A DNA stretch of 64,000 nt from Escherichia coli (lineage in GTDB: Bacteria > Pseudomonadota > Gammaproteobacteria > Enterobacterales > Enterobacteriaceae): assembly GCF_013315695.1 (NCBI RefSeq), contig NZ_CP054353.1. One strand, given 5' to 3'. This document shows positions 1,482 through 16,356 of the stretch, piece by piece (the stretch's first letter is position 1; every line of letters starts with the position of its first letter). Below the pieces are notes generated by a model, which saw only the letters and a program-made list of their open reading frames with translations, had not been told where the DNA came from and did not search any database. Both the position numbers and the translations under genes were made by a program.

Positions 1482-1545
1482 CAGCGCGTGAATGCGGGGC
1501 TGTTTTTCGGGAGGATGTCGCCACACAAAACACCAGGAGGTGCTC

Positions 1546-2727
1546 ATGAGTGAAACACGCTTTCACGGTGCACGCGTCAAAGAAAACACCGACCTTGTGA
1601 CCGCGATTAATGACATTGATTCCAGTGTCATCGGTATCGTGGCCACGGCGGACGATGCAGACAGCGACGCGTTCCCGTTAAACAAACCCGTATTGATCAC
1701 CCGCGTGGCGAATGTGCTGGGTAAGGCAGGCACAACAGGCACGCTGTACAAAACGCTCAAGGCGATTTCCGACCAGACCAGCCCGAAGGTTATCGTGGTG
1801 CGTGTGGCTGAAGCCGGAGAGGAAGGTGAGACACAGGATCAGCTTGTCATCGGTGGCTCGCAGGCTGACGGCAGCTACACGGGCATGTATGCCCTGCTGG
1901 TTGCTGAACAGGACGAGAGCATTGGTTACCGCCCGCGCATTCTGGCGGCTCCCGGCCTGGATACCGAAGCAGTCACATCCGCCCTGTGCGTCATTGCGGA
2001 CAAGCTCCGCGCCTTTGTGTACGCCGGATGTAACGGGTGCGACACGATGGCGGAGGCAATCACTTACCGTGCGAAGTTCTCCGCGCGTGAGCTGATGCTG
2101 CTGTGGCCTGACTTCATTGCCTACAACCCGGTGAGCGGAAATAACGAAACATTTCCGGCAGCGGCGTATGCGTGCGGGTTGCGTGCGCGGATTGACAGTG
2201 AACAGGGCTGGCACAAGTCACTGTCCAACGTGGCGCTGAAAAATGTTCTCGGTATGTCGCAGCAGGTGTTCTGGTCGTTGCAGGCCGAAGACAGTGATGC
2301 GAACAACCTGAACAACAAGGAAATCACCACGATTATTCGCCGTAACGGCTTCCGCTTCTGGGGGAACCGTACTGCCGAAACCAGCGACTACATCTTTGAG
2401 GTGTACACGCGCACAGCGCAGATTCTGGCAGATACCATCGCTGAGGCGCAGTTCGAAACCATTGACGAACCGCTGACCCCGGCGAACGTGAAGGACGTGA
2501 TTAGCGCCATCCGCGCAAAACTCAACGCCCTGGTCACCGCCGGGAAACTCATCGGTGCGGAGTGCTGGTATGACGTGCTGGACAACGGCACGACGGATTT
2601 GCGTCAGGGGCGCGTGCGCATCCGCTACAAGTACACGCCAGTGCCGCCGATGGAAGATCTGACGCTGTATCAGACCTTCACGGATGAGTATTTCGACTCC
2701 GCTTTTGCAACGCTGGGAGGTGCGTAA
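1546..2727 (+). CDS. FI: Contractile tail sheath protein FI
   Basis: MSETRFHGARV...FPLNKPVLI...GFRFWGNRT...YTPVPPMEDLTL closely resembles P2 FI; RBS GGAGG upstream of ATG 1546. Confidence 0.9.
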   Translation: MSETRFHGARVKENTDLVTAINDIDSSVIGIVATADDADSDAFPLNKPVLITRVANVLGKAGTTGTLYKTLKAISDQTSPKVIVVRVAEAGEEGETQDQLVIGGSQADGSYTGMYALLVAEQDESIGYRPRILAAPGLDTEAVTSALCVIADKLRAFVYAGCNGCDTMAEAITYRAKFSARELMLLWPDFIAYNPVSGNNETFPAAAYACGLRARIDSEQGWHKSLSNVALKNVLGMSQQVFWSLQAEDSDANNLNNKEITTIIRRNGFRFWGNRTAETSDYIFEVYTRTAQILADTIAEAQFETIDEPLTPANVKDVISAIRAKLNALVTAGKLIGAECWYDVLDNGTTDLRQGRVRIRYKYTPVPPMEDLTLYQTFTDEYFDSAFATLGGA

Positions 2728-3243
2728 ATGGCTGTACCACGTTACGTTCGCCAGTTCACGCTGTTTGTGAACGGCAAAAACAAAATCGGCACGGTGACAG
2801 GCGTCACTCTGCCCAAGCTGACCCGAAAAACCGAAGCCTATCGCGGTGGCGGGATGCTGGGTGCGGTGCATATTGACCTCGGACTGGATGACGGCGCACT
2901 GGATGCCTCGTTCACCACCGGTGGGGTTGAAAAAGAGCTGCTCCAGGAATACGCCACTGACATTAACGAAGTGGCGCTGCGCTTTGTGGGTGAGCTGTTC
3001 ACCGATGGTGAGGAAAGTCAGCTCCTTGAGGTGGAGATGCGCGGACGCATCACGGAAATCGACCGTGGCGAAACCAAACAGGGCGACACCACACAGTACA
3101 CCTTCGCCGTCAAAAACACCTACTACAAGGAGTCGGTGGATGACAGTGATGTGACAGAAATCGACCTGCTGAACTTCATCTACAAAAAAGACGGCCAGAA
3201 CGTCTTTGGTGACCGCGTGAGTTCGGCGCTCGGTCTGAACTGA
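2728..3243 (+). CDS. FII: Tail tube protein FII
   Basis: 171-aa ORF immediately after FI, as in the P2 FI-FII pair; size matches P2 FII. Confidence 0.85.
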   Translation: MAVPRYVRQFTLFVNGKNKIGTVTGVTLPKLTRKTEAYRGGGMLGAVHIDLGLDDGALDASFTTGGVEKELLQEYATDINEVALRFVGELFTDGEESQLLEVEMRGRITEIDRGETKQGDTTQYTFAVKNTYYKESVDDSDVTEIDLLNFIYKKDGQNVFGDRVSSALGLN

Positions 3244-3289
3244 CAGCATTAACAGGGCGGCACATTGTGCCGCCACAGGAGAAAGAAAA

Positions 3290-3673
3290 ATGGCAGCAAA
3301 GAAAGATGACATCATGAACAGCGAAATCGTCGCAGGTGACACCACCACTGAAAACATCGATGTGGCAGAGGAAAAAACGGGGGTGAAGTTATCCTGCCCG
3401 GTGGTGCGTGGCGAACGCGTTATTGACTACGTGGAGATTGGCGAGGAAATCCGTCAGGCAGGCTCGTTGCGCGGGCTGTCTCTGATTGAGGTGCTGAACC
3501 TCAAAACGGACCCGATGATGACGCTGCTTTCGCGCGTGACCGCACCACGCCTGAAGCTGGCAGAAATCCAGACACTGGACACCGGTGATTTCGTGGCGCT
3601 GGCGACTATGGCTGCGAATTTTTTTGCTCCCACGGAGTCTGCGAAACCGTCCGTGGCGGTGATGGAAGCGTAA
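3290..3673 (+). CDS. E: Tail assembly chaperone E
   Basis: Position between tube and tape measure; contains a run of seven T followed by G at 3619..3626, matching the P2 E/E' slippery site type. Confidence 0.75.
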   Translation: MAAKKDDIMNSEIVAGDTTTENIDVAEEKTGVKLSCPVVRGERVIDYVEIGEEIRQAGSLRGLSLIEVLNLKTDPMMTLLSRVTAPRLKLAEIQTLDTGDFVALATMAANFFAPTESAKPSVAVMEA

Positions 3674-3836
3674 TCACGCTGGCGAAGTTCGACAACGTTG
3701 AAGAACTGGTCGCTGATATAGCAGTCGTGTTTAACTGGTCGCCCGGCGAGATATTCTCAATGCCTCTCGTCGAGGTGATGAGCTGGCGTGAGCGGGCGGC
3801 GCAACGTAGCGGAGTCCGCAACAGTGAAATCCCTTG
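3290..3836 (+). CDS. E': E+E' fusion product predicted from -1 programmed frameshift at 3619..3626
   Basis: After a -1 slip on the T-run, the frame stays open to TGA at 3834..3836 and encodes ...VITLAKFDNVEELVADIAVVFNWSPGEIFSMPL..., resembling the conserved P2 E' extension. Confidence 0.55.
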
Positions 3837-6800
3837 ATATTCGTGTCAGCTTTGGCGCAATTGACCGGCTGACATGCCCGACCGAAAACGCCCGCCGTCA
3901 GGTGGGCGCTCTCACTGAATCCCTTCAGAAGACGCAGAACAACATACAGGCGCTCGACAGACAGTCGAAGGTGTTCGATCGTGCCGCCGGAAATCTCAGT
4001 AAATACCGCGAACAGATTGCCCGCGCGGAGCAGAGGCTCGCCGGGCTGCGAAAGGCAGAGCAGAACGGTAACATCCTCTCCGAAAAGCAGCGCGAAACGC
4101 TGGCGGCACTCTCCGCGCGGCTTGAGCGCCTGAACGAGCTGCGCACGCGCGAGCGCGAAAAACTCCAGGCGGCGGCTGGCGAAATGCGTAAACATGGCAT
4201 TCTGCTTTCCGGCAGCAGCCGCACCATCGAAAGTGCCGTTCGTCGCACGCAGCAGTACAACGAGCAGCTCGAGCGTGAACGGCAGGCTCTGGCTCGCGTG
4301 ACGCAGGCACAGAGCCGCTATGAGGCCGCGAAGGCACAGGCGGAAAAACTGCGCAACACAGGGGCTGTGGCGATGGCGGCGGGTACAGGCGGCCTGTATG
4401 CGGCGCAGCGCATGATGGCTCCGGCGATGGAGTCCGAACAGCACGGTGCGGTCATCGCAGCCGGTTCGGGGGAAGGCGCACAGGATGGCGCACGTTACAC
4501 CCACATCATCCGTAACATACAGGCTGACGGTCTCGCTGATTTTGCCGGTGCTGCGGAGGCCGTGAGTGCGGTACGCAGCACGCTCGGCGCACTGGGCGAC
4601 ACCGGTGACAGGGAGCTTGAGCGCATCAGCCGTCGTGCGCTGGATATGCGGACCGTCTTTGGTGTTGATGTGCCGCAGAGCATTCAGGCCGCTGCCATCA
4701 TGATGAAGAACGGGCTGGCCGCCAGCAGTGACGAGGCTACTAACCTGATGACGGCAGGGATGCAGCGCATGTCCGCTGAAATGCGCGATGAACTGCCGGA
4801 AATTCTGCATGAGTATTCCACCCACTTCCGCAACATGGGCTTCACCGGCAGCGAGACAATGAGTCTGCTGGTTGAGATGGCAAAGCAGGGCAAGTTTGCG
4901 CTGGACAAAACCGGCGATGCCGTGAAGGAGTTCAGTATCCGTGGTTCGGATATGTCGAAATCCAGTGTTTCAGCGTATGAGACACTTGGCCTGAATGCCG
5001 AACGGGTGTCTGCTGCCATTGCTCAGGGGGGCAGTACCGCACGCCAGGCGATGCAGGTGACCGCCCGTGCACTGCTGGCCATCCGTGACCCGGCAGAGCG
5101 GGCGAACACGGCCATTGCGTTATTCGGCACCCCCGTTGAAGACCTTTCCGTTGACCAGATCCCGCAGTTCCTGAGGGCGCTGGCTGATGTTCGTGACAAT
5201 CTGGGCGATGTCACCGGTGTGGCAGACCGCATGGGGCAGACGCTGCGCGGTAATCTCTCCGGCGATATTCAGGCGCTGAGTGGTGCGTTCTCAGGGCTAC
5301 GCACGGACATCTTCGGTACTGTGACCGAGGATTTGCGCGGGCTGGTTCAGACGGTGAGCGCGTGGGTGACCCGGATGCGCGAATGGGTCGGAGAGCATCA
5401 GGCGCTGGTCAGGGTGCTGGTACTGGCGGGCGGGAGTGTTCTGGCGCTGTCTTCTACGTTCGGTGCGCTGTCACTGACGCTCGGGCTGATTGCGGGGCCG
5501 CTGGCAAAACTGCAACTGGGACTGGGGCTGCTGACGGGGGGCGGCGGCATTGGTGGTGCTGTCCGGCTTGTGTCTGCGATGGCGCTGCGCCTGACGGGGC
5601 TGCCTGCGCTGTGGGGGCTGGTCACGGGGGCGGTGTCGGTACTGGGTGGTGCAGTGGGGGCGCTGTTCAGCCCGGTCGGGCTGATTGTTGCCGCCCTGGT
5701 GGGCGGCGCGGTTCTGGTGTGGAAATACTGGGATCAGATCAGTGCGTTTTTTTCCGGCTTTTTTGCCGGAGTGTGGGAGGCGCTGCAACCGCTGCGGGAA
5801 GCCTTTGCGTCGCTGGCTCCGGTGTTCGGGCTGATTGGCGATGGCATCAAAGCCGTGTGGGAATGGTTCACCCGCCTGCTTGAACCTGCAAACGCCTCAA
5901 AAGAGACACTCGACAAATGCACCAGCGCCGGGGAGTCGTTCGGGAAAACGCTGGGGTGGGTCATTCAGAACATTGTGCTGGGGCCGCTGACACTGCTTCT
6001 TGATGGCCTCGGCACAGTGCTGAAGTGGCTGGGTGTTATCCCGGATGGCATCAGGGAAGCGCAGAAGGAGACGCAAAAACTCCAGGAGAGCGCCGCAAAA
6101 CAGGCCACACAAAAAGCGCCGGTTGCGTGGGAGTGGGATCCTGCACAGAAAAAAATGGTGCAGAAAACATGGTCGTGGTCATCAGATGCAGCGGAAAACA
6201 ACGGTGACAATAAACCCGCAATACCTGCCCCTGCGGTTCCCGGAGAGGTGAAGGGAACGTCAGACAATCCGGTCGGCAAACCCGGTAGTAAATCCCCGCT
6301 GGATGAGGCATGGTTCCGGCAGGGGATACAGAAAACCGCCAGCAACACCGGCGGGCTGCTTGAGGAAACCAAAAAACGTACTGGTCCCGGCGATATTGTT
6401 TTCAAAAACCTGCCCGGACCCGAAATCATTCACGGCGAGTGGAAAGCACCGCAGGTTATCCGGACAGTGCAGGCGGTATCGGCGGGCGGAGGACTGGCGG
6501 ATGCGCTGACAACGCTCTGGCAGAAACTCACCGGAAGACAGACTGCTTCACCCGTTCCGGTCGTGAATATTCCTGCGCCAGTGGAGAGAGTGGCACGTCA
6601 GGTATCCACGCTGCCACAGCCGCAGCACAACGAGGCAAATACAGAACTGGTTGCCGGTATTCAGCGCGTGCATGAGGCTGTGAACAGTCCGGGGGGAGAG
6701 ACGGTATCGCCTCCACCTGTGGTGAACGTTCTGATGCCAGCAGTGAATGTTCCTGCGCCAGTGGTGAGTGTGGCGCGTCAGGTATCCACGCTGCCGCAGC

Positions 6801-7288
6801 ACAACGAGGCAAATACAGAACTGGTTGCCGGTATTCAGCGTGTGCATGAGGCGGTGAACAGTCCGGGTGGAGAGACGGTATCGCCTCCACCTGTGGTGAA
6901 CGTTCTGATGCCAGCAGTGAATGTTCCTGCGCCAGTGGTGAGCGTGGCCCGTCAGGTATCCACGCTGCCGCAGCACAACGAGGCAAATACAGAGCTGGCT
7001 GCCGGTATTCAGCGCGTGCGTGAGGCTGTGAACAGTCCGGGTGGAGATGTGGCTTTATCTGTTCCTGTTGCGGAGGTTATCCGTCCACCGCTGCGACCGG
7101 AGTCCGTCAAAAAAGAAACCGCGCCACAAACGCAGGCTGCGGTATTTTCCGGTGAGATACACGTGCATCTGCACAACGTCAACACGCAGAATCCGCGTGA
7201 ACTGGCAAAACTGGTTGGCGAGGCTGTCCGCGAAGAGATGCGCAGACAGGTGCGTACAGGCATGAACAGCTTCCGTGACAGGGACTAA
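3788..7288 (+). CDS. T: Tail tape measure protein T
   Basis: 1166-aa ORF after E/E' with coiled-coil N-terminal part, Gly/Ala/Leu-rich hydrophobic core and internal tandem repeats; start codon uncertain (GTG 3788 or a downstream GTG). Confidence 0.85.
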   Translation: MSGRRNVAESATVKSLDIRVSFGAIDRLTCPTENARRQVGALTESLQKTQNNIQALDRQSKVFDRAAGNLSKYREQIARAEQRLAGLRKAEQNGNILSEKQRETLAALSARLERLNELRTREREKLQAAAGEMRKHGILLSGSSRTIESAVRRTQQYNEQLERERQALARVTQAQSRYEAAKAQAEKLRNTGAVAMAAGTGGLYAAQRMMAPAMESEQHGAVIAAGSGEGAQDGARYTHIIRNIQADGLADFAGAAEAVSAVRSTLGALGDTGDRELERISRRALDMRTVFGVDVPQSIQAAAIMMKNGLAASSDEATNLMTAGMQRMSAEMRDELPEILHEYSTHFRNMGFTGSETMSLLVEMAKQGKFALDKTGDAVKEFSIRGSDMSKSSVSAYETLGLNAERVSAAIAQGGSTARQAMQVTARALLAIRDPAERANTAIALFGTPVEDLSVDQIPQFLRALADVRDNLGDVTGVADRMGQTLRGNLSGDIQALSGAFSGLRTDIFGTVTEDLRGLVQTVSAWVTRMREWVGEHQALVRVLVLAGGSVLALSSTFGALSLTLGLIAGPLAKLQLGLGLLTGGGGIGGAVRLVSAMALRLTGLPALWGLVTGAVSVLGGAVGALFSPVGLIVAALVGGAVLVWKYWDQISAFFSGFFAGVWEALQPLREAFASLAPVFGLIGDGIKAVWEWFTRLLEPANASKETLDKCTSAGESFGKTLGWVIQNIVLGPLTLLLDGLGTVLKWLGVIPDGIREAQKETQKLQESAAKQATQKAPVAWEWDPAQKKMVQKTWSWSSDAAENNGDNKPAIPAPAVPGEVKGTSDNPVGKPGSKSPLDEAWFRQGIQKTASNTGGLLEETKKRTGPGDIVFKNLPGPEIIHGEWKAPQVIRTVQAVSAGGGLADALTTLWQKLTGRQTASPVPVVNIPAPVERVARQVSTLPQPQHNEANTELVAGIQRVHEAVNSPGGETVSPPPVVNVLMPAVNVPAPVVSVARQVSTLPQHNEANTELVAGIQRVHEAVNSPGGETVSPPPVVNVLMPAVNVPAPVVSVARQVSTLPQHNEANTELAAGIQRVREAVNSPGGDVALSVPVAEVIRPPLRPESVKKETAPQTQAAVFSGEIHVHLHNVNTQNPRELAKLVGEAVREEMRRQVRTGMNSFRDRD
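6560..7060 (+). repeat. About 2.7 tandem copies of an in-frame ~174-bp unit inside T
   Basis: Peptide unit PAPVVSVARQVSTLPQHNEANTELVAGIQRVHEAVNSPGGETVSPPPVVNVLMPAVNV repeats near 6565, 6747 and 6921; the first copy carries an extra PQ. Confidence 0.8.
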
Positions 7289-7301
7289 AGGAGACGCAAT
7301 T

Positions 7302-7760
7302 ATGATGATGATTTTTGGCATGTTTGTGTTTGAACTGAAAACGCTGCCGCATCAACAGATTCAACAAAACAAAACGTGGCGGCATGTGAAAAATGAGCGA
7401 ATCAACCGTTCTGCGGCCTGGCAGTATATTGGCGCAGGTGACGACCAGATCACGCTGTCCGGTCTGCTGTACCCGGAAATTACCGGCGGTGAGGTGTCGC
7501 TGACACTGCTGAACACCCAGGCCTACACCGGATGTCCCTGGCCGCTGATTGATGGTACGGGGCAGATTTACGGAATGTACGTGATTACGGGATTACAGAC
7601 CACCCGCTCCGAACTGGATCGCTACGGGAAGGCAAAAAAGATTGAGTTCTCCATCAGCTTTCAGCGGTGTGATGAGGATATGCGGGAGAGGCTTCAGTCT
7701 GCTTCTGCAGGTGATTTACTGAACACGCTTAAAGACAAAATGGCGATAGCGGCATTCTGA
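7302..7760 (+). CDS. U: Tail protein U
   Basis: MMMIFGMFVFELKTLPHQQ...DDQITLSGLLYPEITGG... resembles P2 gpU; RBS AAGGAG before ATG 7302. Confidence 0.85.
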   Translation: MMMIFGMFVFELKTLPHQQIQQNKTWRHVKNERINRSAAWQYIGAGDDQITLSGLLYPEITGGEVSLTLLNTQAYTGCPWPLIDGTGQIYGMYVITGLQTTRSELDRYGKAKKIEFSISFQRCDEDMRERLQSASAGDLLNTLKDKMAIAAF

Positions 7761-7769
7761 ATAAAAAAA

Positions 7770-7796
7770 GAGGGAGTGTAAAAAGCACTCCCTTAT
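7770..7796 (+). terminator. Hairpin terminator candidate after U
   Basis: AGGGAGTG-loop-CACTCCCT followed by a T-containing tail. Confidence 0.45.
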
Positions 7797-7882
7797 TGCC
7801 TTCATGGAAAAGAAGCAAATGTTGTCAATACATTCTGACTATATATAAATCGCCCGATGAAGGCAATGGTGATGTTCGGGAA

Positions 7883-7908
7883 ATAAAAAAGCCCTCACAA
7901 AGAGGGCG
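7883..7908 (-). terminator. Rho-independent terminator candidate (minus strand)
   Basis: GCCCTC-ACAAA-GAGGGC preceded on the plus strand by an A8 run, i.e. hairpin plus U-run on the minus strand. Confidence 0.5.
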
Positions 7909-8070
7909 GCATGCATTGTGTGAAGATTTAATTTTTCTGCTTGCAGGGGGATTATATTGAACGGTATTCATTCAATGCAATATTTTTAATTGTCATTATC
8001 ATTAATGAAAATGTTTCTTGTGTTTTTGTTGCTCTGATTACAATCCCGTTTATTACTGTGTCTTTGCGGC

Positions 8071-8097
8071 AAAAAAAAAGCCCGCACGGGGCGGGCA
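8071..8097 (-). terminator. Rho-independent terminator candidate (minus strand), just downstream of the decayed G
   Basis: GCCCGC-ACGG-GGCGGG hairpin with an A9 run on the plus strand (U-run on minus). Confidence 0.6.
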
Positions 8098-8140
8098 AAG
8101 AATGTTTGCATGTGTAGAACAGTGCGGGATTATAAATATA

Positions 8141-8711
8141 TTATGCGTTCTGAAAAGTCCCCTTTGATGGAGATTCAGGCCATACCAGCGCATTATAACA
8201 ATCTTTATTCATCACGGAAGTGAACGTCAACTGCTGAAGTTCCCTAATATATTCAATCCACGTAGCCAACCTTCCCTTGTCTGCATTGCTGATGGTGCCG
8301 GGCAATAACTCAGATTGCCAGATTCTGATCCTCTCTTTTGCCTCCGGCAGCAGGGGATTTCGTTGTCATTCTGCTTTAGCCTGCCACTTTTCAGGTGGCA
8401 GCACATGACGAACAATATTTTCATCATCAAATATCCAGTTACCTGAGTCATCAGCACGTTGGTTAGCGTTAATATCAGAAGTATTAACAACACTAAAACC
8501 GACATGATTAAGTGTTGATGCCTCTCTGGTAATGGTGACAATAATATTATTTCGTTGTAAATCATTTTGATTTTATCTGGTCGAAAGGTCCCTGCTTCGT
8601 TATGTCAGTTTTATCGCCTTCAGAGGAAACCAGATTACTTTGTGCTTCTTTTTCTAACACATACAGTCCCGGAGTTAATATTGCCTGTTTTATGTTCTTG
8701 AGTGCATCATA
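8141..8711 (-). pseudogene. G: Decayed tail fibre assembly gene G (frameshifted, with an early in-frame stop)
   Basis: Minus-strand translations in two frames give NNIIVTITREASTLNHVGFSVVNTSDINANQRADDSGNWIFDDENIV and ...ADKGRLATWIEYIRELQQL...VWPESP, resembling P2 gpG; the N-terminal part reads MMHSRT-stop. Confidence 0.6.
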
Positions 8712-8767
8712 TTAATCTCTTACATATTGTATCTGGTGAAATTTATAATTTTCTGAAGCTGCCTGAA

Positions 8768-8898
8768 AGAATTGAGTTTCCTGCAGGCTTTCAATGGTGT
8801 GATGAGGATATGTGGGAGAAACTCCAGTCTGCTCCTGCAGGGGGGGCTTACTGAACACTATCAAAGACAAATCTTCGTCGTTGATCGCATTCCCTTAA
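8768..8898 (+). pseudogene. Diverged second copy of the 3' end of tail gene U (fragment)
   Basis: DNA is homologous to 7631..7760 (roughly four-fifths identical by eye, TGTGATGAGGATATG core conserved), with a G7 run causing a frame break; the 5' part of U is absent. Confidence 0.6.
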
Positions 8899-8903
8899 CC
8901 TGA

Positions 8904-8938
8904 CGCCACCACCCCACACAGATGACGGGGTGGTGGCG
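8904..8938. terminator. Strong GC hairpin between the U fragment and the tail-fibre operon
   Basis: CGCCACCACCCC-loop-GGGGTGGTGGCG perfect 12-bp stem; no clear U-run, so terminator function is uncertain. Confidence 0.35.
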
Positions 8939-8943
8939 TGATT

Positions 8944-9240
8944 TCACCAGTAACTAACCAGCAGCCAGAACAACAGGCATATTGCCACTGGTGCAGCAAA
9001 ATCCATCAGGCTTCCGGCATCCCACACGCGCGGATCAAAACCACCCCACCAGGGCATGTTAATTCGTTTCCCTTTCCCGAATTTTTCAATCCAGCGATAT
9101 TCTGCCTGGGTGTGTTCACGCGCAATGAAGAACGAGCAACCGGCTATCGCTCCGTAAACCCAGTTTCCCGTAAGAATGCCAGCCAGTACCTGCGCAGCCA
9201 CGGCACAAAGTGCATGAAGGACAGGCGTTATATCCATCAC
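8944..9240 (-). CDS. Small two-TM membrane protein of unknown function, last gene of the tail-fibre operon
   Basis: 98-aa ORF with hydrophobic N- and C-terminal segments; GGGAGG RBS 9 bp upstream; co-directional with and immediately downstream of H and orf92. Confidence 0.6.
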   Translation of the reverse strand: MMDITPVLHALCAVAAQVLAGILTGNWVYGAIAGCSFFIAREHTQAEYRWIEKFGKGKRINMPWWGGFDPRVWDAGSLMDFAAPVAICLLFWLLVSYW

Positions 9241-9249
9241 TCCCTCCCT

Positions 9250-9528
9250 TCAGCTCCATTCCCGAAGCGGTGCTTCCAGCTCCACCACATAATCAGAGAA
9301 CACAGAAACATCAAACGTATCATCAAGAATACGAATGTTGACAAAATAACCGTCATTCCGGATACAGACAGGTTCTCCCTCTTCATTTTCCCCTGTTTCT
9401 GTATAGGTGAAACCAATTTCATCGACTAACAGTTTGTTCTGGAGGTCTTCATTTTCCTCCCAGCCAAGAGATGACAGGAGGGCTTTAAACTGCTGTTTGT
9501 CATGAAACTTCAAAGTCAAATCTTTCAT
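9250..9528 (-). CDS. Acidic 92-aa protein translationally coupled to tail fibre H (candidate non-canonical fibre chaperone)
   Basis: ATGA start/stop overlap with H at 9525..9528; no resemblance to P2 gpG noticed; occupies the position G holds in P2. Confidence 0.55.
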   Translation of the reverse strand: MKDLTLKFHDKQQFKALLSSLGWEENEDLQNKLLVDEIGFTYTETGENEEGEPVCIRNDGYFVNIRILDDTFDVSVFSDYVVELEAPLREWS

Positions 9529-11306
9529 ATTGCCTCTCTTAATTGCCTGTCATTTAATTCTTTATGCCATATGCGGAAATTACGAATGTGACCAAACAGA
9601 TGTCGTTCTCCAGTACTCGTTCGCCCTCCAATACGGATAATTGCGGAGTTCTGAATATATGACCATGTGGTTTTTGTTTCGCCGGATAACCGTCCGTTAC
9701 TGACTGAGCATGTAGACTGATCTGACTTTACTCGCATCCCTATAACCATTTTTTCAAGTGATGCGTTTTCGTTTACCCGCATGTTAGCCCCGCCTATATC
9801 GCAATAAGGAAATCCGTCGTAATCCGTCGAACGACCGAATCCAAGAATAATTTCCTCTCCAGTTTGATGACCACTGGTATTAAGAACACGCGGTGCTGCA
9901 TTTGGCGTTTTATACCAGTTCTTATGTACCTCACAAAGAACAGTAAAAGGAGGATTATAAAGATTATTCTTAACCGGAACTGTCACAATATCACTTGCAC
10001 GTGTTGCTGGTGTTGCACCCGATATAATAAATGATGATGCGCAGGGGCCATTTTCAACCTGAGGGGTGGACAGGAAAACATAATCTCCTGATTCAACGAC
10101 ACCACCTTCTTTCGGAGTGTATTGTATTGCCGATGTTATGTAGGACTCATCAATTGCCTGAATCGTTGCCTCTGCAAAAATCCAGCCGGTAACCTCATCT
10201 TTGTTAACTCGGGCAGTGATCCTGTCGGCAGCTCCTCCTGTGATTTTAACTGATAAAGATCGCGTATTAACAATGGCATATCCAAGGTTAGATGATGTGT
10301 TGCCATCGTAAGATTCAAACCTGATCCTTAACATGAGTTCCAGATCAGTTTTAAATCTGCACGATGTCGTCACGCACTTATTATCGCCTGAAACATCGAC
10401 GGCTCCGGTTACTGCAACTGATGCCATGTTAACAGGCAGGGACTGCCCAATCAGAGAATCGTTACAGACGAACTTTCCATAGGTAAAACCAGAACTGTCC
10501 GTCCCGGTTTCGGGAACATCCATATTTACCGACTTGCCCCAGTTGACCGGGGTTTCCGAATTGAGCATGTAGTTTGTTCTTTGCCCTTCAATAAGCAGTC
10601 CATCGCGTTCAAATCGCGGCTCATTAATTTCAGCTATTTTCAGTTCACCGGATTTATTGATATAGGTTGCCGTTGATGCGCGACTGAAACTAACCTGTTT
10701 ATCACTGGCAACCTGAACCACATCGTCACCAATGGTGATTTTTTTATAGCCCGGTGCGAACCCCGTAAGCATATCCAGTGAATCGTTAAACGGTATCCAC
10801 ACATCAGGCAGCGGCGGTACAGACTCCTTTTCCTGCGCAACATATTCTTCAACATAGGCGCGGGTGGCGAGCACGACAGAGGGATCAACTTTCAGTTCGA
10901 CAGACGAAGCACTGGAAACCACAACAATCATGCGAATCGTCTGCGTGCGCCCGCTTCCCTCGGTGAGTACAGGCTTGTAGGTTTCGGGGCAGTTCGCCAC
11001 GGCAATCATCACGCCGTCGCTGTCAAAAAGCCCAATCTCGCGGATCCAGAACCCCCCTTTATCTTCCGGGATAATCATCTCGGCGATAAGCTGGCTGGCA
11101 TCAGACGCGCTGATGCTCAGTTGATTCAATGGGGCGCTGTATACCGTGTTCACCAGATTTTCCATGGAAGCCTCCGGTTCCGGCAGGCTGCCGCCGCCAT
11201 CCCCCAGTTTCATGGTGGTGATGGATATTTTCGAGCCGCTGGCCACCGCCTTTGCCAGACGGGCGGCACCCTTGTCAGTCAGAACAGAAAAATATTTTAC
11301 AGTCAT
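9525..11306 (-). CDS. H: Tail fibre protein H (conserved P2-like N-terminus, divergent C-terminal region)
   Basis: N-terminus ...ITTMKLGDGGGSLPEP...WIREIGLFDSDGVMIAVANCPETYKP...SGRTQTIRMIVVVSSASSVELKVDPSVVLATRAYV matches P2 gpH; the rest is unrelated, as expected for a receptor-binding part. Confidence 0.85.
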   Translation of the reverse strand: MTVKYFSVLTDKGAARLAKAVASGSKISITTMKLGDGGGSLPEPEASMENLVNTVYSAPLNQLSISASDASQLIAEMIIPEDKGGFWIREIGLFDSDGVMIAVANCPETYKPVLTEGSGRTQTIRMIVVVSSASSVELKVDPSVVLATRAYVEEYVAQEKESVPPLPDVWIPFNDSLDMLTGFAPGYKKITIGDDVVQVASDKQVSFSRASTATYINKSGELKIAEINEPRFERDGLLIEGQRTNYMLNSETPVNWGKSVNMDVPETGTDSSGFTYGKFVCNDSLIGQSLPVNMASVAVTGAVDVSGDNKCVTTSCRFKTDLELMLRIRFESYDGNTSSNLGYAIVNTRSLSVKITGGAADRITARVNKDEVTGWIFAEATIQAIDESYITSAIQYTPKEGGVVESGDYVFLSTPQVENGPCASSFIISGATPATRASDIVTVPVKNNLYNPPFTVLCEVHKNWYKTPNAAPRVLNTSGHQTGEEIILGFGRSTDYDGFPYCDIGGANMRVNENASLEKMVIGMRVKSDQSTCSVSNGRLSGETKTTWSYIQNSAIIRIGGRTSTGERHLFGHIRNFRIWHKELNDRQLREAI

Positions 11307-12079
11307 GAAAAAATCCTCAAAGAATCCTCCAGAAATACCACTGATGCTGTCAGGGTTCCGGTTGTGGCGGTCAGTTGCATCACCGCCTGTGGCTCCACGG
11401 TCACCGCATCATCGCCCGTAACCTGTAATCCCATGACAATCCCCGCATCGACAGATACCGACGGTGTCGGCGGGTAAATGGTGAGCATGTCGCCGTCAAA
11501 GAAAGCCGGAGATGCCCGGAACACCGAAACAGTCTCAACACCGGCAGAAGCGGCTGGCCAGATTGTTGTTTCACTGCCGTCGTGCATGCCGGAAAACACA
11601 CGTGCGACTCCCTGCGTATCCAGCATAATGTTCAGCGAGGCAAGGTGGCGGCTGACCGGACGGGCATCGTCGATCAGTCGTGTCAGCTCGGAGTACGTTT
11701 CCTCTGTGATACCCGCGTCCTGCACGCCAATATCAATGCGGAACGTGCCGCGCGGGTCGCCGTTCTGCCACCACTCCGTCACGTTAATGACATAGCCAAA
11801 GGGTTCAACCACACGCCTGATGGCGCTGATGGTTCCCTTATGGCGGTGGATTGCCCAGGCATCACGGATCACCTGGCGCTTTGTTTCTTCCGTCCAGTCA
11901 CGATCCCACCTGTCCACGGACAGCGCCCACGCCAGATAAGGCAGCAGGGCTGCCGGGCAGGTGTCAGGATCCCAGAGCTGGTTAAGGCTGACAGGTAATG
12001 CTGACAACCGGGCGGTTCCCCGCTCCACGCAGCGCATGAAATCGCTGGCTGAAGGGGGGAGAAGTGACGGTTCACTCAT
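11303..12079 (-). CDS. I: Baseplate protein I
   Basis: DTCPAALLPYLAWALSVDRWDRDWTE motif typical of P2 gpI; start placed at MSEPSLLPP. Confidence 0.8.
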   Translation of the reverse strand: MSEPSLLPPSASDFMRCVERGTARLSALPVSLNQLWDPDTCPAALLPYLAWALSVDRWDRDWTEETKRQVIRDAWAIHRHKGTISAIRRVVEPFGYVINVTEWWQNGDPRGTFRIDIGVQDAGITEETYSELTRLIDDARPVSRHLASLNIMLDTQGVARVFSGMHDGSETTIWPAASAGVETVSVFRASPAFFDGDMLTIYPPTPSVSVDAGIVMGLQVTGDDAVTVEPQAVMQLTATTGTLTASVVFLEDSLRIFS

Positions 12080-12968
12080 TGGTTCCCCCTGTGCTGACCG
12101 TGAACGATGTGCAGTACGCTGACTGCACATCACTGATAACAATATTCTGTGCGGGGCTGGTCAGTTCCACGCGCTGAACGCCCTGAACATGCAGTGCGGC
12201 CATGATGGCGGAGAGCGCGACATCGCGACCGATTTTGCCCTGTTCGGCAAGCCAGGTTTCCAGATTGTTTCTGGCGGCATTCAGGATGGGTTCCGACTCC
12301 GGCCCCGGATAAAAGTAAAGCCGGGCATCAATCTGATACCGTATGATTTCTGCGCTCTGCACCGTCAGACGGTCACCGACCGGGCGAACGTCTTCGGCAT
12401 TCAGCGCATTTCTGACCGTTGTCAGGAGTTCTTCGGTCGCCGTGCCGTCGCCTTCTGTGGACAACACTGTCACCACCACTTCCGCCGGTGCGGGGCTGGT
12501 TGCGCGCGCGTCCGCCACCTGACCGCTGGCACTGCGGGCAAAATATTCATACGCCCCGGTGGGACCGGCCACGCTGAGGCCATCAAATGCAGACTGCGCA
12601 CGCAGCCGCAGGGCGGAGTCGCTTTCCATGACGGCCTCCGTGGTGTCCATGGCCGGTGTGATGACCAGCCGCGCGGTGTTCATGTTGGCAGCGAGGTTGT
12701 CCAGGTCATCACCTGTGGAATGGCTCAGCATACAGGCCGCTGCGCCCTCATTAATGCGCTGGCGAAGCAGCAGTTCACGCAGCGCGAAAGCCTGGGCAAT
12801 GACCGTGAGCGGTTCGGACTCCAACGCCATGGCTGACCGGATGGCAGCCTGCTGTGTCTGTGGAAATGACGTAATGATGTCTTCTTTCACTTCCGCTAGG
12901 ATGACTTCAAAATCCGGCGTTTCAATAATCTGTGGTGTCGGCAGTTCCGACAGGTCAACGGCTGGCAT
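12072..12968 (-). CDS. J: Baseplate protein J
   Basis: 298-aa ORF at the P2 J position with matching size; overlaps W and I ends as in P2. Confidence 0.85.
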   Translation of the reverse strand: MPAVDLSELPTPQIIETPDFEVILAEVKEDIITSFPQTQQAAIRSAMALESEPLTVIAQAFALRELLLRQRINEGAAACMLSHSTGDDLDNLAANMNTARLVITPAMDTTEAVMESDSALRLRAQSAFDGLSVAGPTGAYEYFARSASGQVADARATSPAPAEVVVTVLSTEGDGTATEELLTTVRNALNAEDVRPVGDRLTVQSAEIIRYQIDARLYFYPGPESEPILNAARNNLETWLAEQGKIGRDVALSAIMAALHVQGVQRVELTSPAQNIVISDVQSAYCTSFTVSTGGTNE

Positions 12969-13320
12969 TGTCGCTCCTGAGTGTCAGTGTGTTCTGTACG
13001 GTTTCCAGGCTTTCTGTCAGTGTGCCGGTGAGGGTGATAACGGCTTTTCCGCCCGCCTCCCACTGAATGTCAACGGCATTCAGGGCGATGCGTGGCTCCC
13101 ACTGTGTCAGGGCAATCACCACGGCGCTCATGCACTGAAGGCGCGTGGTGGCATTCATCGGTGCATCCAGCAAATCCGGCAGCAGGCTGCCGTATTCCCG
13201 GCGCATCACCCGGCTGGCGAGCGGTGTTAACAGAATATCCCTCACGCTGTTCCACAGATGGTCCGTGTCGCTGAGCGTGCCGGTGGCCTCGGGGTTCATC
13301 CCCAGAAAACGGGCACTCAC
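12955..13320 (-). CDS. W: Baseplate protein W
   Basis: 121-aa ORF between V and J, size and position as P2 gpW. Confidence 0.8.
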   Translation of the reverse strand: MSARFLGMNPEATGTLSDTDHLWNSVRDILLTPLASRVMRREYGSLLPDLLDAPMNATTRLQCMSAVVIALTQWEPRIALNAVDIQWEAGGKAVITLTGTLTESLETVQNTLTLRSDNASR

Positions 13321-13898
13321 TGCGGGCCTCCTGTGCTGTCACCGCCGCTCTTCACGCCACTGTGTTTGTGCGTGTGCAGCGTCACACCGTTTGAGGTGAA
13401 ATCACCGCCGCTGTGCGAGATACTGCCACTCATGGTTCCGCCTTCTGTCACCTCAATCGTTGTCGTCTTCAGATGGTTTGTGCAGGTGACGGTGGGGGTA
13501 TCCAGCGTCACGCCTGTTCCGGCCTGAATGGTGGCAGTTTTGATTCCGCTGGCGCTCAGTGCGCCAGCGTCCGCATCGTAGCGGAACACCGCGCCGTCAG
13601 GCGCTGTAACCACGATTTCCGTCAGGCTGCTGCCGGGCGCCGGATGTTCGCTGCTCCAGAGACTGCCGATGACGGACGCGGTCGCGGGGTCGCCACCGAT
13701 GCAGGCAATCATGACCTGTTCGCCCACGGCAGGCGGCAGCCAGACGCTGAACGCGCCCGCGCGTGGTGTGTTCCAGCGCAGCCAGTCGGTTTCCAGCTCT
13801 CCGCTGCGCACGCGAACGCGCCACGTTGTTTCGTCCACGGCAAAAATCACGCCCGTGCGGATGATATTTGCAAGCAGTCGCATGATTTCCGCTGTCAT
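13317..13898 (-). CDS. V: Baseplate spike protein V
   Basis: 193-aa ORF at the P2 V position, Gly/Thr/Ser-rich C-terminus. Confidence 0.8.
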   Translation of the reverse strand: MTAEIMRLLANIIRTGVIFAVDETTWRVRVRSGELETDWLRWNTPRAGAFSVWLPPAVGEQVMIACIGGDPATASVIGSLWSSEHPAPGSSLTEIVVTAPDGAVFRYDADAGALSASGIKTATIQAGTGVTLDTPTVTCTNHLKTTTIEVTEGGTMSGSISHSGGDFTSNGVTLHTHKHSGVKSGGDSTGGPQ

Positions 13899-14533
13899 CG
13901 TGCTGCACTCCCCAGGGAACGGATAATCGCGTCACGCATCCGGCGTTCGTCGGCTGCGGTCACACCCAGCAGTTCACGCACCGGGTAGGTGGTCATCACG
14001 CCCGGTGTCACCTCGTCGCGTAACCCCGCCTGATGCACGCGGGCAATCCGCGCAGCCAGGCCATCAAAGCCCACCACAGCGCCTTCCGCATCTGAGCGCA
14101 TTTTTAACCAGCGATATGTGCGAAGACGCGCGAACATCGGCGTGCTTTTCTTGCTGGTCTGGCGGGCAGACATGGACGATACAGCGAGGTATCGTTCAAT
14201 ATCATCGCGGTAAAACGTCCTCAGTGCGCCGCCACGGTCAGGGTCGCGCCCGATGATGGCGCGGCCTTTCCGGTAACGTTTGTGCCCCCACTGGCGCAGC
14301 GTGCGGACCTCGCCGTTCCAGACAAACTTCACCTCCCGGCGGGTGTGCATTACCTGCTGTTTTCGCGCCGGATACGGCGAACCGTCTGCGTTCTTCTGCG
14401 TACGGATACGCGCCTGCTGGCTCTGGCGCAGCGCCTGCCCGACAGCCCTCGCCGTGCGTGCACGTCCGGCGGTGGAAAGTCCGTTCAGGATGTCGCGGAA
14501 AACCGCGTCCGGGTCATGCGTCGTCGTGTTCAT
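13895..14533 (-). CDS. S: Tail completion protein S
   Basis: Position between R and V; start uncertain (ORF is longer than P2 gpS). Confidence 0.7.
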   Translation of the reverse strand: MNTTTHDPDAVFRDILNGLSTAGRARTARAVGQALRQSQQARIRTQKNADGSPYPARKQQVMHTRREVKFVWNGEVRTLRQWGHKRYRKGRAIIGRDPDRGGALRTFYRDDIERYLAVSSMSARQTSKKSTPMFARLRTYRWLKMRSDAEGAVVGFDGLAARIARVHQAGLRDEVTPGVMTTYPVRELLGVTAADERRMRDAIIRSLGSAAR

Positions 14534-14996
14534 CCGTCAAATCCTTAAAGGTCACATCCTCAACAATCAGCTCTCCCCAGGCTCCTGTCAGTGCGGCAGG
14601 CGGGCGGGGTTCCGGCAGGTGCACCGGATACAGTTCCCCCTGTTCATTGCGACAGACTTTCACGCGCTCGCGCACGGGAATTTCCAGTAACAGGTCGGTG
14701 CTGTCGTCGTCATTGACGGCAACGGAAAACTTAACGTCCTTGTTTTTCTCCGGGTTGAGCAGCAAATCCGGCTGGTTGTGCATGAGCCAGACAATCAGCG
14801 GCAGCATCAGCTCGTCGATGTGTCCCGGAAAATCCATGACGAAGGCCACGAGCGTGTAACGGTAGACAAACGTCGGGGTTTCACCCGTGGTCTCAATACT
14901 TCCGCTTTCTGCAAACACGGTGAGTTTTTCCGGATTCGCGCGACACCACCGGGATGAGGCGGTGAGGGCTTCGCGCAGACGGTTCATTTTCAGCAT
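14514..14996 (-). CDS. R: Tail completion protein R
   Basis: 160-aa ORF at the P2 R position, size as P2 gpR. Confidence 0.7.
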   Translation of the reverse strand: MLKMNRLREALTASSRWCRANPEKLTVFAESGSIETTGETPTFVYRYTLVAFVMDFPGHIDELMLPLIVWLMHNQPDLLLNPEKNKDVKFSVAVNDDDSTDLLLEIPVRERVKVCRNEQGELYPVHLPEPRPPAALTGAWGELIVEDVTFKDLTDEHDDA

Positions 14997-15005
14997 GACT
15001 TCTCC

Positions 15006-15289
15006 TTACGGTCGCATCCGGCGTTGTTGTTCGGTTGCTTTAATGGCTGCCTTGTCAGCGTTGCAGCTCTCCAGTGCGTCCAGCAGCCGGTCACTCCAGA
15101 CGGCCAGTCCGCCCCACGTCAGCGGACGGGGCAGGGACGGCACCGGCGTTGGCTGTGTCAGACTTTCCGGCAGCGGTGCGTGCTGCGTCTGAGTGACCAC
15201 GACGGGGCGCGGCGCGCTGTTGCAGGCGGTCAGCAACAGCGGCAGGCACAGCAGCAGCCGCGCACGGATTTTCCCGGAGTGTGTTGCGT
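15006..15289 (-). CDS. lysC: o-spanin (LysC/Rz1-like outer-membrane lipoprotein), embedded out of frame in lysB
   Basis: GTG start with GGGAGA RBS; VKRYATHSGKIRARLLLCLPLLLTAC signal peptide with lipobox LTAC; Pro-rich mature part. Confidence 0.65.
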
Positions 15290-15537
15290 ATCTCTTCACG
15301 GCGTTTTTCTCCCTCCTGATTCCGGTGCTGCTCTGCGGCGCGGACCTGCGCCAGCAGGTCGCTGATGCCCCGGAGTTCCGCATGAAGTGCATCCACGGCG
15401 GCATTTGTTCCCGCCAGCGCCTGTTCGTGATATTCCCGGCGCGCCCGTTCATGCCCTGCCTGCCAGGCCAGACGCAGTGACACCAGATACAGCGCCCCCG
15501 AAAACAGGGCGACGACGGCGGCGGTGGTCAGCCTCAT
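15091..15537 (-). CDS. lysB: i-spanin (LysB/Rz-like)
   Basis: N-terminal TM segment MRLTTAAVVALFSGALYLVSL then charged coiled-coil-like region; overlaps the endolysin end and contains lysC. Confidence 0.7.
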   Translation of the reverse strand: MRLTTAAVVALFSGALYLVSLRLAWQAGHERARREYHEQALAGTNAAVDALHAELRGISDLLAQVRAAEQHRNQEGEKRREEIRNTLRENPCAAAAVPAAVADRLQQRAAPRRGHSDAARTAAGKSDTANAGAVPAPSADVGRTGRLE

Positions 15538-16076
15538 TTCTGTTTCTCCACATCCCGCAGACACCAGGCGCGAAAATCGCTGCGGCGGTTAACCAGTCCC
15601 TGACTGCGCTTCCCGCCTGCATTCACAAAATCAGTGAGGCGGGCACACATCCGCGCCCAGTTATGCGCCTGTGCCTGTTTCCAGATGGTGGTGCGCTGGC
15701 GCTTACCGTTGCGGTCCCTGAACCACATCAGACCGGAGCACCCCAGATTGAAGGCTGCATCCGTCATCGCCTCGAAGGCCGACTGCGGCATGGCTGCCCC
15801 CTGAAAATTCTGGTTAATACAGCTCTCCGCCCGCTGCATGTCATTCACCCAGCGACGGGCCACCTCCTGCTCGCTGTACAGGTGTTTCTGTACGTTCCCC
15901 GTGGAGCCGCAGCCCACGGTGGCAACACCCGCGATGTCCGTGTAGGGTGTGGCGCGGCAGTCTTCCCACGTGGCAATTTTTATCTGTGCCTCCTGTGAGG
16001 TGCGCAGTGCTTCAGGAGCCAGCGAGACACCCAGCGCCACAATCACGGCGGCGGCATATCGCTTAATGTTTTTCAT
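15534..16076 (-). CDS. K: Endolysin, lysozyme-like with N-terminal signal-anchor (SAR-type) segment
   Basis: MKNIKRYAAAVIVALGVSLAP hydrophobic N-terminus followed by ...ATPYTDIAGVATVGCGSTG... lysozyme-like motifs; start placed at the third in-frame ATG. Confidence 0.75.
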   Translation of the reverse strand: MKNIKRYAAAVIVALGVSLAPEALRTSQEAQIKIATWEDCRATPYTDIAGVATVGCGSTGNVQKHLYSEQEVARRWVNDMQRAESCINQNFQGAAMPQSAFEAMTDAAFNLGCSGLMWFRDRNGKRQRTTIWKQAQAHNWARMCARLTDFVNAGGKRSQGLVNRRSDFRAWCLRDVEKQK

Positions 16077-16356
16077 CGTTATCCCGTTGCAGTGCGGCAA
16101 GCGCCCGTTGTTCACTTTCATGAAGCCCGCGCGTTCCGGCCTGTGCCAGAATCTGTGCAATCAGCGCATTGCGGCGGACCTGCGCACGCTCCATGCGGCG
16201 ACGGTGAAGCCAGCCCTGAAAGAGTGAAAGCGCACCCAGCAGCAGCCCGGCCAGCGCGATTTTTTCGCTGATGGTCATCGCGCCAATCGTGACCGCAGAG
16301 ACGGAGGCGGCGAAGGCGATGTGGTCGTAAATACTGCGAAAAAAACCTAATCCCAT
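16063..16356 (-). CDS. Y: Holin candidate
   Basis: Two hydrophobic segments then charged C-terminus (HRRRMERAQVRRN), directly upstream of the endolysin. Confidence 0.6.
   Translation of the reverse strand: MGLGFFRSIYDHIAFAASVSAVTIGAMTISEKIALAGLLLGALSLFQGWLHRRRMERAQVRRNALIAQILAQAGTRGLHESEQRALAALQRDNDEKH

Follow-up and report, generated by a model that had tools for sequence, protein, structure and literature searches.

The low-GC tip of tail fibre gene H (residues ~165–593), the small acidic gene orf92 and the membrane-protein gene ybl63 form one imported cassette in a P2-like prophage of Escherichia coli. Our overall reading, to which we assign a probability of about 55%, is of a mobile cassette in which orf92 would encode an accessory protein dedicated to the fibre tip, and ybl63 would be separate cargo whose likeliest benefit is protection from further infection. 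The window (the whole stretch of DNA analysed, 64,000 nucleotides) holds this prophage, with its V-W-J-I-H operon on the minus strand; it also encodes a ppsA product identical to E. coli proteins. A preliminary description of the locus had called both small genes uncharacterised, and so they proved: profile and structure searches gave only families of unknown function already catalogued in PHROG, phrog_1361 for orf92 and phrog_1443 ('Ybl63') for the membrane protein. Their exact sequences occur in 75–81 E. coli contigs, always annotated as hypothetical, and no paper describing either protein was found in the searchable literature; a search for the name 'Ybl63' returned no paper either. Both are real genes by dN/dS and conservation, which, with hundreds of homologs, rule out chance open reading frames.

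An imported tip module in fibre gene H

Gene H (9525..11306, minus strand; 3' end ...GCA ATA TGA) consists of two parts. The 5' part (10815..11306, minus strand) encodes a P2-type N-terminal collar/attachment domain (residues 1–164), with Pfam Phage_tail_fib on residues 1–149 (E=1.9e-56) and PHROG fibre N-terminal families covering residues 1–164; its GC content of 0.551 marks it as native to the ~58–60% GC backbone. The 3' part (9525..10814, minus strand) is an imported fibre tip module of ~430 residues with a GC content of 0.443, matched by phrog_1419 over H residues 148–593 (E=6e-214). GC content steps down from ~0.58 to 0.44 at H residue ~165; against the ~58–60% of the phage backbone, it is 44% across H residues 165–593, 42% in orf92 and 52% in ybl63. 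The module starts at a conserved joint, PLPDVWIPFNDSLDM, and ends in ...RHLFGHIRNFRIWHKELNDRQLREAI. In the proposed sequence of events, a mobile host-range cassette would have recombined into the P2-type fibre gene at this joint (PLPDVWIPF...).

Residues 238–437 of H score 47.1 bits against NCBIfam GTA_spike_fiber (NF048003; cut-off 36), Laminin_G_3 matches the C-terminus weakly, and RcGTA Rcc01080 is a weak match to the tip. On these profile matches, the tip has a galectin/LamG-like character and is a relative of the GTA head-spike fibre. Bas32 Gp22 carries the same module at its C-terminus, from which a 'galectin-like' domain projects according to the second BASEL paper (PMC11990801). In phage 21, mEp460 and many further lambdoid phages, tip and small genes also make up the side-tail-fibre locus. 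With the tip module in 218 phage records and matches to the cassette query in 1821 of 5426 complete E. coli genomes (~1/3), the galectin-like tip cassette ranks among the commonest host-range modules of E. coli phages.

Between the convergent operons, directly behind the ybl63 stop, lies a GC-rich hairpin (8903..8940) with a perfect 12-bp core (CGCCACCACCCC/GGGGTGGTGGCG), a predicted dG of -30.8 kcal/mol (z = -4.1; equalled by 0 of 200 shuffles) and no U-tract on the minus strand. Abutting it, a 50-aa open reading frame (8702..8854, plus strand) is a duplicated fragment resembling the C-terminus of tail protein U (ERIEFPAGFQWCDEDMWEKLQSAPAGG versus KKIEFSISFQRCDEDMRERLQSASAGD, translations), of which the full copy lies at 7275..7760 (plus strand); searched alone, the fragment matched nothing in PHROG. 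It is probably a scar of the cassette recombination, derived from a P2-like donor whose U and ybl63 genes were directly convergent.

Further on, at ~8141..8560 (minus strand), is a gpG/Tfa-type tail fibre assembly pseudogene with an in-frame TGA. Its joined translation matches phrog_136, 'tail fiber assembly protein' (E=8e-28, profile positions 55–177 of 178), lacks about the first 54 residues and is the only Tfa match in the locus. This pseudogene is a relic of the fibre chaperone made redundant by the cassette; the older downstream gpG/tfa gene would have decayed after the cassette arrived. The preliminary description had placed orf92 and the membrane gene 'in place of G', which was right in function, although G itself survives as this relic. 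It was also right that neither protein is like gpG, since neither matched any Tfa/gpG profile (e.g. phrog_136) in PHROG, Pfam or NCBIfam.

Several observations concern the surrounding prophage. The spacer between the convergent operons (7761–8943) is 1.2 kb long and AT-rich (GC 0.41); it contains several terminator-like hairpins, and none of its genes is convincingly intact. Its counterpart in classical P2, from the fibre genes to the sheath gene, is a cargo hotspot (Z/fun). Compared with classical P2, the sheath-tube-E-T-U block (1492–7760, plus strand) is inverted, so that it is convergent with the H-orf92-ybl63 operon (8944–16200, minus strand). An assembly or rearrangement artefact was rejected as its origin, and the layout is taken as a lineage trait, because E. 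coli SWHEFF_58 shares it. Gene D lies on the minus strand at 268–1566, with ogr annotated beside it only in the relative L023. The tape measure gene (3788–7288) carries ~3 tandem repeats of ~50 aa near its C-terminus (window ~6500–7050, plus strand; VSTLPQHNEANTELVAGIQRVHEAVNSPGGETVSPPPVVNVLMPAVNVPAPVV).

orf92, a partner of the fibre tip

orf92 (9250..9528, minus strand) starts at an ATG that overlaps the H stop codon, preceded by a GAGAGG Shine-Dalgarno sequence, so that the ATGA coupling to H first described is present in the sequence. The protein has 92 residues and is acidic, as was also noted at the outset (pI 4.16; 21 D+E versus 8 K+R). Residues 1–91 align with positions 1–91 of the 92 in the phrog_1361 profile (E=3.6e-42). 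Its AF2 model (pLDDT 93.5) is a compact alpha/beta fold, beta-alpha-alpha followed by a long beta-hairpin, with a conserved C-terminal tail. orf92 matched nothing in Pfam, NCBIfam or PADLOC-DB v2, the last even at E<=1; PDB sequence searches with orf92 and ybl63 gave nothing meaningful, and orf92 has no recognisable domain or structural relative. An exhaustive profile search for the family returned only 82 representative clusters. Long multi-stretch matches in the representative search (P0197, P0217 and similar) are TPR-like or repeat proteins and represent composition artefacts. Against orthologs from cassettes without fibre B, dN/dS is 0.22–0.41, indicating purifying selection.

The genomic context of orf92 is constant. 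It lies directly downstream of the tip at all 78 evaluable IMG/VR loci, so that the pairing is kept beside similar fibres, a test that the preliminary description had set. A tblastn search placed orf92 in 163 phage records, without exception where a lateral or side tail fibre gene ends or overlapping that end; these records include virulent Drexlerviridae, Dhillonvirus, Queuovirinae and T5-like phages. The pairing extends over lambdoid, P2-like, T1-like, Queuovirinae, T5-like and rV5-like phages, spans at least seven lineages both temperate and virulent, and recurs in distant prophages and a metagenomic phage. In Seuratvirus Bas25, Tequintavirus Bas32 and the Drexlerviridae phage tonn, orf92 homologs overlap or abut the same tip. 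Some tip-bearing records missed by tblastn are rV5-like phages; in CarlMeissner, the one examined, the overlapping downstream open reading frame is a remote orf92 homolog (hhalign 97.7%). In rV5, the gp41 fibre allele ends in an S74-type chaperone domain (PMC3606486), and no small open reading frame was found downstream of gp41.

This constancy, across the IMG/VR loci and many lineages and with the S74 allele of rV5 lacking the small gene, identifies orf92 as an accessory protein of this particular tip. Context and sequence thus strongly support a fibre-tip-specific accessory protein from a previously uncharacterised family. A distant trio was also observed in three metagenomic phage contigs (L019–L021, 3261–5294), consisting of a tip-like protein of 405 aa, a 174-aa protein whose N-terminal domain resembles orf92 (hhalign 97.3%) and Ybl63, followed by a GH108 lysis cassette.

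It is highly improbable that orf92 is unrelated to fibres, for example as a hitch-hiking anti-defence or regulatory protein. Such a role would suit its lack of a recognisable domain or structural relative and its small, acidic character, which many anti-defence proteins share. Yet orf92 is strictly adjacent, by stop/start overlap, to one tip module across virulent and temperate lineages, and is missing where the same fibre gene bears another tip.

From linkage, coupling and selection, we infer the following biochemical role. orf92 would be made in step with the fibre through the stop/start coupling. Its target would be a conserved part of the tip, which it would most likely help in trans to fold or assemble, or else cap transiently. 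Where a second, distal fibre is encoded next, it may also help to dock that fibre. The main rival to the favoured assembly factor or cap develops this last point: orf92 would be mainly a structural adaptor that stays in the virion and docks a T-shaped fibre B beside the galectin-like tip of the proximal fibre, remaining a tip-bound subunit where fibre B is absent. We consider this rather unlikely, although several observations point towards it.

Fibre B is encoded by a third gene, directly after orf92, and has an N-terminal motif common to all fibre B proteins (T.IP.DI..LK) and a C-terminal Peptidase_S74 chaperone domain. All the virulent phages examined (Bas25, Bas32, tonn) carry it in this position, as do over half of the temperate cassettes. 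At 45/80 and 47/78 IMG/VR loci, the proximal fibre and fibre B flank orf92 directly, as they do in Bas25, Bas32, tonn and 2G7b. In a published model (PMC11990801), Bas32 Gp24, a fibre B, is a T-shaped distal receptor-binding protein joined to the proximal fibre, and the Bas32 orf92 homolog is annotated 'tail fiber protein' in GenBank. Variation in the tip is not mirrored in orf92: between Lambda_2E9 and phage 21, the tips are 43% identical and the orf92 proteins 93% identical. Identity of orf92 tracks the fibre B N-terminus (Spearman 0.51) above any tip segment (0.19–0.37), a comparison confounded by physical linkage and mosaicism.

Against the adaptor role stand cassettes that lack fibre B. 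In all those examined (the window, phage 21, Lambda_2E9 and E. coli SWHEFF_58), orf92 is intact, retains all family motifs and evolves at the dN/dS given above, and IMG/VR holds ~30 loci of this kind. Since cassettes without fibre B keep orf92 intact under purifying selection, its conserved function cannot depend on fibre B. Virion proteomics of rV5 and AKFV33 gave nothing on the small protein, the AKFV33 study comprising four gel bands only. The favoured reading remains an assembly factor or cap that acts in trans on conserved tip regions. The earlier suggestion that orf92 could be a fibre-specific chaperone holds for its fibre-specific accessory role, given the IMG/VR loci, six further lineages and the decayed tfa; as for mechanism, orf92 may act as a chaperone.

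ybl63, a membrane protein at the end of host-range modules

ybl63 (8944..9237, minus strand) follows orf92 after 12 nt and has its own GGAGG Shine-Dalgarno sequence, as first described. From GGAGG, the spacing is 2 nt to GTG 9240 and 5 nt to ATG 9237, and all homologs begin MDI[TS]P; spacing and homolog starts therefore place the start at ATG 9237 and give a protein of 97 residues rather than the 98 initially proposed. The initial count of two membrane helices is likewise broadened to two or three, to fit hydrophobic segments at residues 5–23, 26–39 and 76–96; the structural model has helices at 4–23, 26–52 and 74–96. Residues 2–96 match phrog_1443 (E=1.5e-52), and Foldseek aligns the predicted inner-membrane protein with UniProt A0A0H3EJ37 'Ybl63' (TM 0.97). 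A dN/dS of 0.17–0.27 against orthologs indicates purifying selection.

The central loop (REHTQAEYRWI..G.GKR.NMPWWGGFD.R.W) is almost unchanged between E. coli, Comamonas and Aeromonas, whereas the membrane helices vary. Homologs carry on average 5.6 Lys+Arg in the loop, 0.1 in the N-terminus and 0.6 in the C-terminus. By this distribution the loop would be cytoplasmic; TMHMM, in the annotation of phage 21, puts it in the periplasm. No lipobox or signal peptide is present: the N-terminus (MDI[TS]P) lacks a basic n-region, and Cys11 is not conserved. A sigma-70-like promoter was not found upstream on the minus strand. With respect to moron criteria, the gene is followed by a strong hairpin without a U-tract, and its GC content of 0.524 is unlike that of both neighbours. 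Searches of Pfam and NCBIfam gave no match, nor did any known defence family, with no PADLOC-DB v2 model matching even at E<=1.

ybl63 is independent of orf92, as judged from sequence searches and gene neighbourhoods. A word-index search returned 547 clusters for ybl63 versus 55 for orf92; relatives reach Aeromonas and Comamonas, and structural relatives in AFDB include alphaproteobacteria. IMG/VR matches re-ranked by a Comamonas sequence were still mostly E. coli loci. Where enough downstream sequence was available, 66 of 68 tip loci carry ybl63. In temperate sipho-, myo- and podoviruses it comes last, behind the receptor-binding genes, standing directly after P22-like tailspikes (sometimes overlapping their stop, beside the integrase), a pectate-lyase spike in a Citrobacter prophage, a 957-aa P2-type spike, an HP1-type fibre in Aeromonas, and fibre B in four-gene cassettes. 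This pattern fits cargo at the end of host-range modules.

In the four-gene cassettes, a GGGG-N7-CCCC hairpin with a T-run was observed between the fibre B stop and the ybl63 ribosome-binding site (L025, 4529–4569; L013, 3458–3501). In the P22-like phage 611R6, ybl63 lies beside the O-acetylase gene oafA and int, and retains this hairpin together with a 114-nt scrap of fibre B; ybl63 therefore travels with its 5' flank. Close homologs (>=60% identity) were found only in temperate-type coliphages, and of the virulent phages examined, none (Bas25, Bas32, tonn and CarlMeissner) has ybl63 behind the same fibre cassette. Two beta-proteobacterial phages carry it directly before a GH108 lysis cassette, and distant homologs occur in ~235-kb Aeromonas phages.

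Two further neighbourhoods were recorded. The Aeromonas rivipollensis chromosome (L004, 6001–6309) carries a stand-alone Ybl63 homolog outside any recognisable prophage, between pirin and RIO1 kinase genes and near two lipid A acyltransferase genes. In phage 21 (L001, 449–3898) and Lambda_2E9 (L024, 3277–5476), the sitABCD iron/manganese transporter operon lies immediately downstream of ybl63 on the opposite strand.

The preliminary description had proposed the membrane protein as a receptor-masking or superinfection-exclusion factor. Its position after temperate-phage receptor-binding genes agrees with that proposal, as does its tight linkage to host-range modules; the exclusion genes cor and llp do adjoin receptor-binding genes (PMC11990801). 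That it masks or modifies the specific receptor of the adjacent fibre is nevertheless very unlikely. Ybl63 proteins that are 75–83% identical (about 80%) follow tailspikes and fibres of unrelated fold and specificity, and tips only 43% identical carry an identical ybl63 (dN = 0, dS = 0.015). Ybl63 is a predicted integral inner-membrane protein, and the lack of a signal-peptide or lipobox pattern and the unconserved Cys11 also speak against masking. Finally, a loop that hardly varies among Escherichia, Comamonas and Aeromonas speaks for a conserved target in the envelope rather than for masking of a specific receptor.

On that reasoning, the target of Ybl63 would be a conserved component of the envelope or inner membrane, not the variable receptor of the fibre. 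The likeliest benefit of the protein would be to shield the lysogen, or the infected cell, against further infection; entry could be blocked at the inner membrane, or surface-glycan display changed in general. A defence role is plausible; that Ybl63 specifically serves in exclusion or conversion, at a conserved envelope step, we hold only tentatively, with the odds against it.

A late lytic function in place of prophage defence, whether lysis regulation, a holin-like activity or an envelope change that spares progeny from debris, is unlikely, but much of the gene's context bears on it. Because no sigma-70-like promoter was found and the ybl63 start overlaps an upstream late gene in several phages, ybl63 is perhaps expressed late in the lytic cycle rather than from the prophage. 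The overlapped gene is a tailspike or fibre gene in JEP4, L018 and Aeromonas L005, and in the window only the 12-nt gap separates ybl63 from orf92. The small size and two or three membrane helices of the protein, the GH108 cassette directly after ybl63 in beta-proteobacterial phages, and the homologs in the large Aeromonas phages point the same way.

Other observations oppose a late lytic function. Virulent coliphages with the same fibre cassette, where examined, lack ybl63, and lysis genes lie elsewhere in the window and in lambdoid and P22-like phages. In the window, lysozyme-like and Rz-like open reading frames are found at ~15.0–16.2 kb, ~6 kb away, and the syntenic relative L023 has lysozyme and LysC annotated at the matching position. 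In 611R6, ybl63 sits in the conversion region between oafA and int, with the hairpin between the fibre-B fragment and the ribosome-binding site. Holin families are highly diverse, and loop conservation this high is unlike them.

Should Ybl63, a very widespread prophage membrane protein with an unusually conserved loop, block infection through a conserved envelope step, it would represent a new broad prophage-encoded barrier, relevant to phage therapy and lysogen ecology. The most specific combined model is speculative and, in our estimate, improbable. It would make Ybl63 an exclusion/conversion factor independent of tail morphology, whose loop disables DNA entry or Und-P-linked glycan display and which forms the fixed 3' end of lambdoid, P2-like and P22-like cassettes; orf92 would represent a new family of fibre chaperones or adaptors through which a single glycan-binding tip can pass among at least seven lineages.

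Comparison with known fibre partners and exclusion genes

If orf92 is a required partner of the tip, tip transplants (retargeted phages, tailocins, packaged cosmids) must take orf92 along, and annotation pipelines could drop 'hypothetical' for it. In position, it resembles the trans-acting fibre chaperones Tfa, P2 gpG, Mu gpU and T4 gp38, which are likewise small and translationally coupled directly after a fibre gene. It differs from these proteins in lacking sequence similarity, in being about half their size with another fold, and in having no allele-specific variable domain that tracks the fibre tip. The 'chaperone caps' of Alteromonas phages A5 and V22 (Gonzalez-Serrano et al. 2023, PMC10579305) offer a parallel, a module of a fibre and a cognate small downstream protein common to morphologically unrelated phages; the idea of a trans chaperone acting as a cap thus exists, but orf92 does not share the fold.

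The relation to S74 intramolecular chaperones is one of alternation: in a natural allele swap that fits this parallel, fibres ending in S74 lack orf92 and galectin-type tips carry it. The orf92 fold bears no resemblance to the endosialidase/T5 intramolecular chaperone domain (S74-type caps). Among proximal/distal fibre systems, IrisVonRoten Gp22 and Gp24 (PMC11990801) are comparable in that the orf92 homolog is Bas32 Gp23, between Gp22 and the distal Gp24. The window cassette, unlike the branched fibres of IrisVonRoten or DT57C, has no distal fibre, and DT57C LtfA ends in its own S74 domain (PMC4728585), unlike the window tip. DT57C LtfC was rejected as an orf92 counterpart, being a different protein, the collar upstream of ltfA. 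In the papers on these fibres (PMC11990801; DT57C LtfA/LtfB, PMC4728585), the small protein is given no role.

For ybl63, the closest analogies are Cor, Llp, P22 SieA, T4 Imm, HK97 gp15 and GtrABC/Oac, with which it shares the character of a small membrane protein at the 3' end of a receptor-binding cluster. Like exclusion and conversion genes, the P22-like ybl63 lies between tailspike and integrase, beside oafA. It has no sequence match to any of them, and Cor and Llp are lipoproteins, whereas Ybl63 is not and has no detected promoter of its own.
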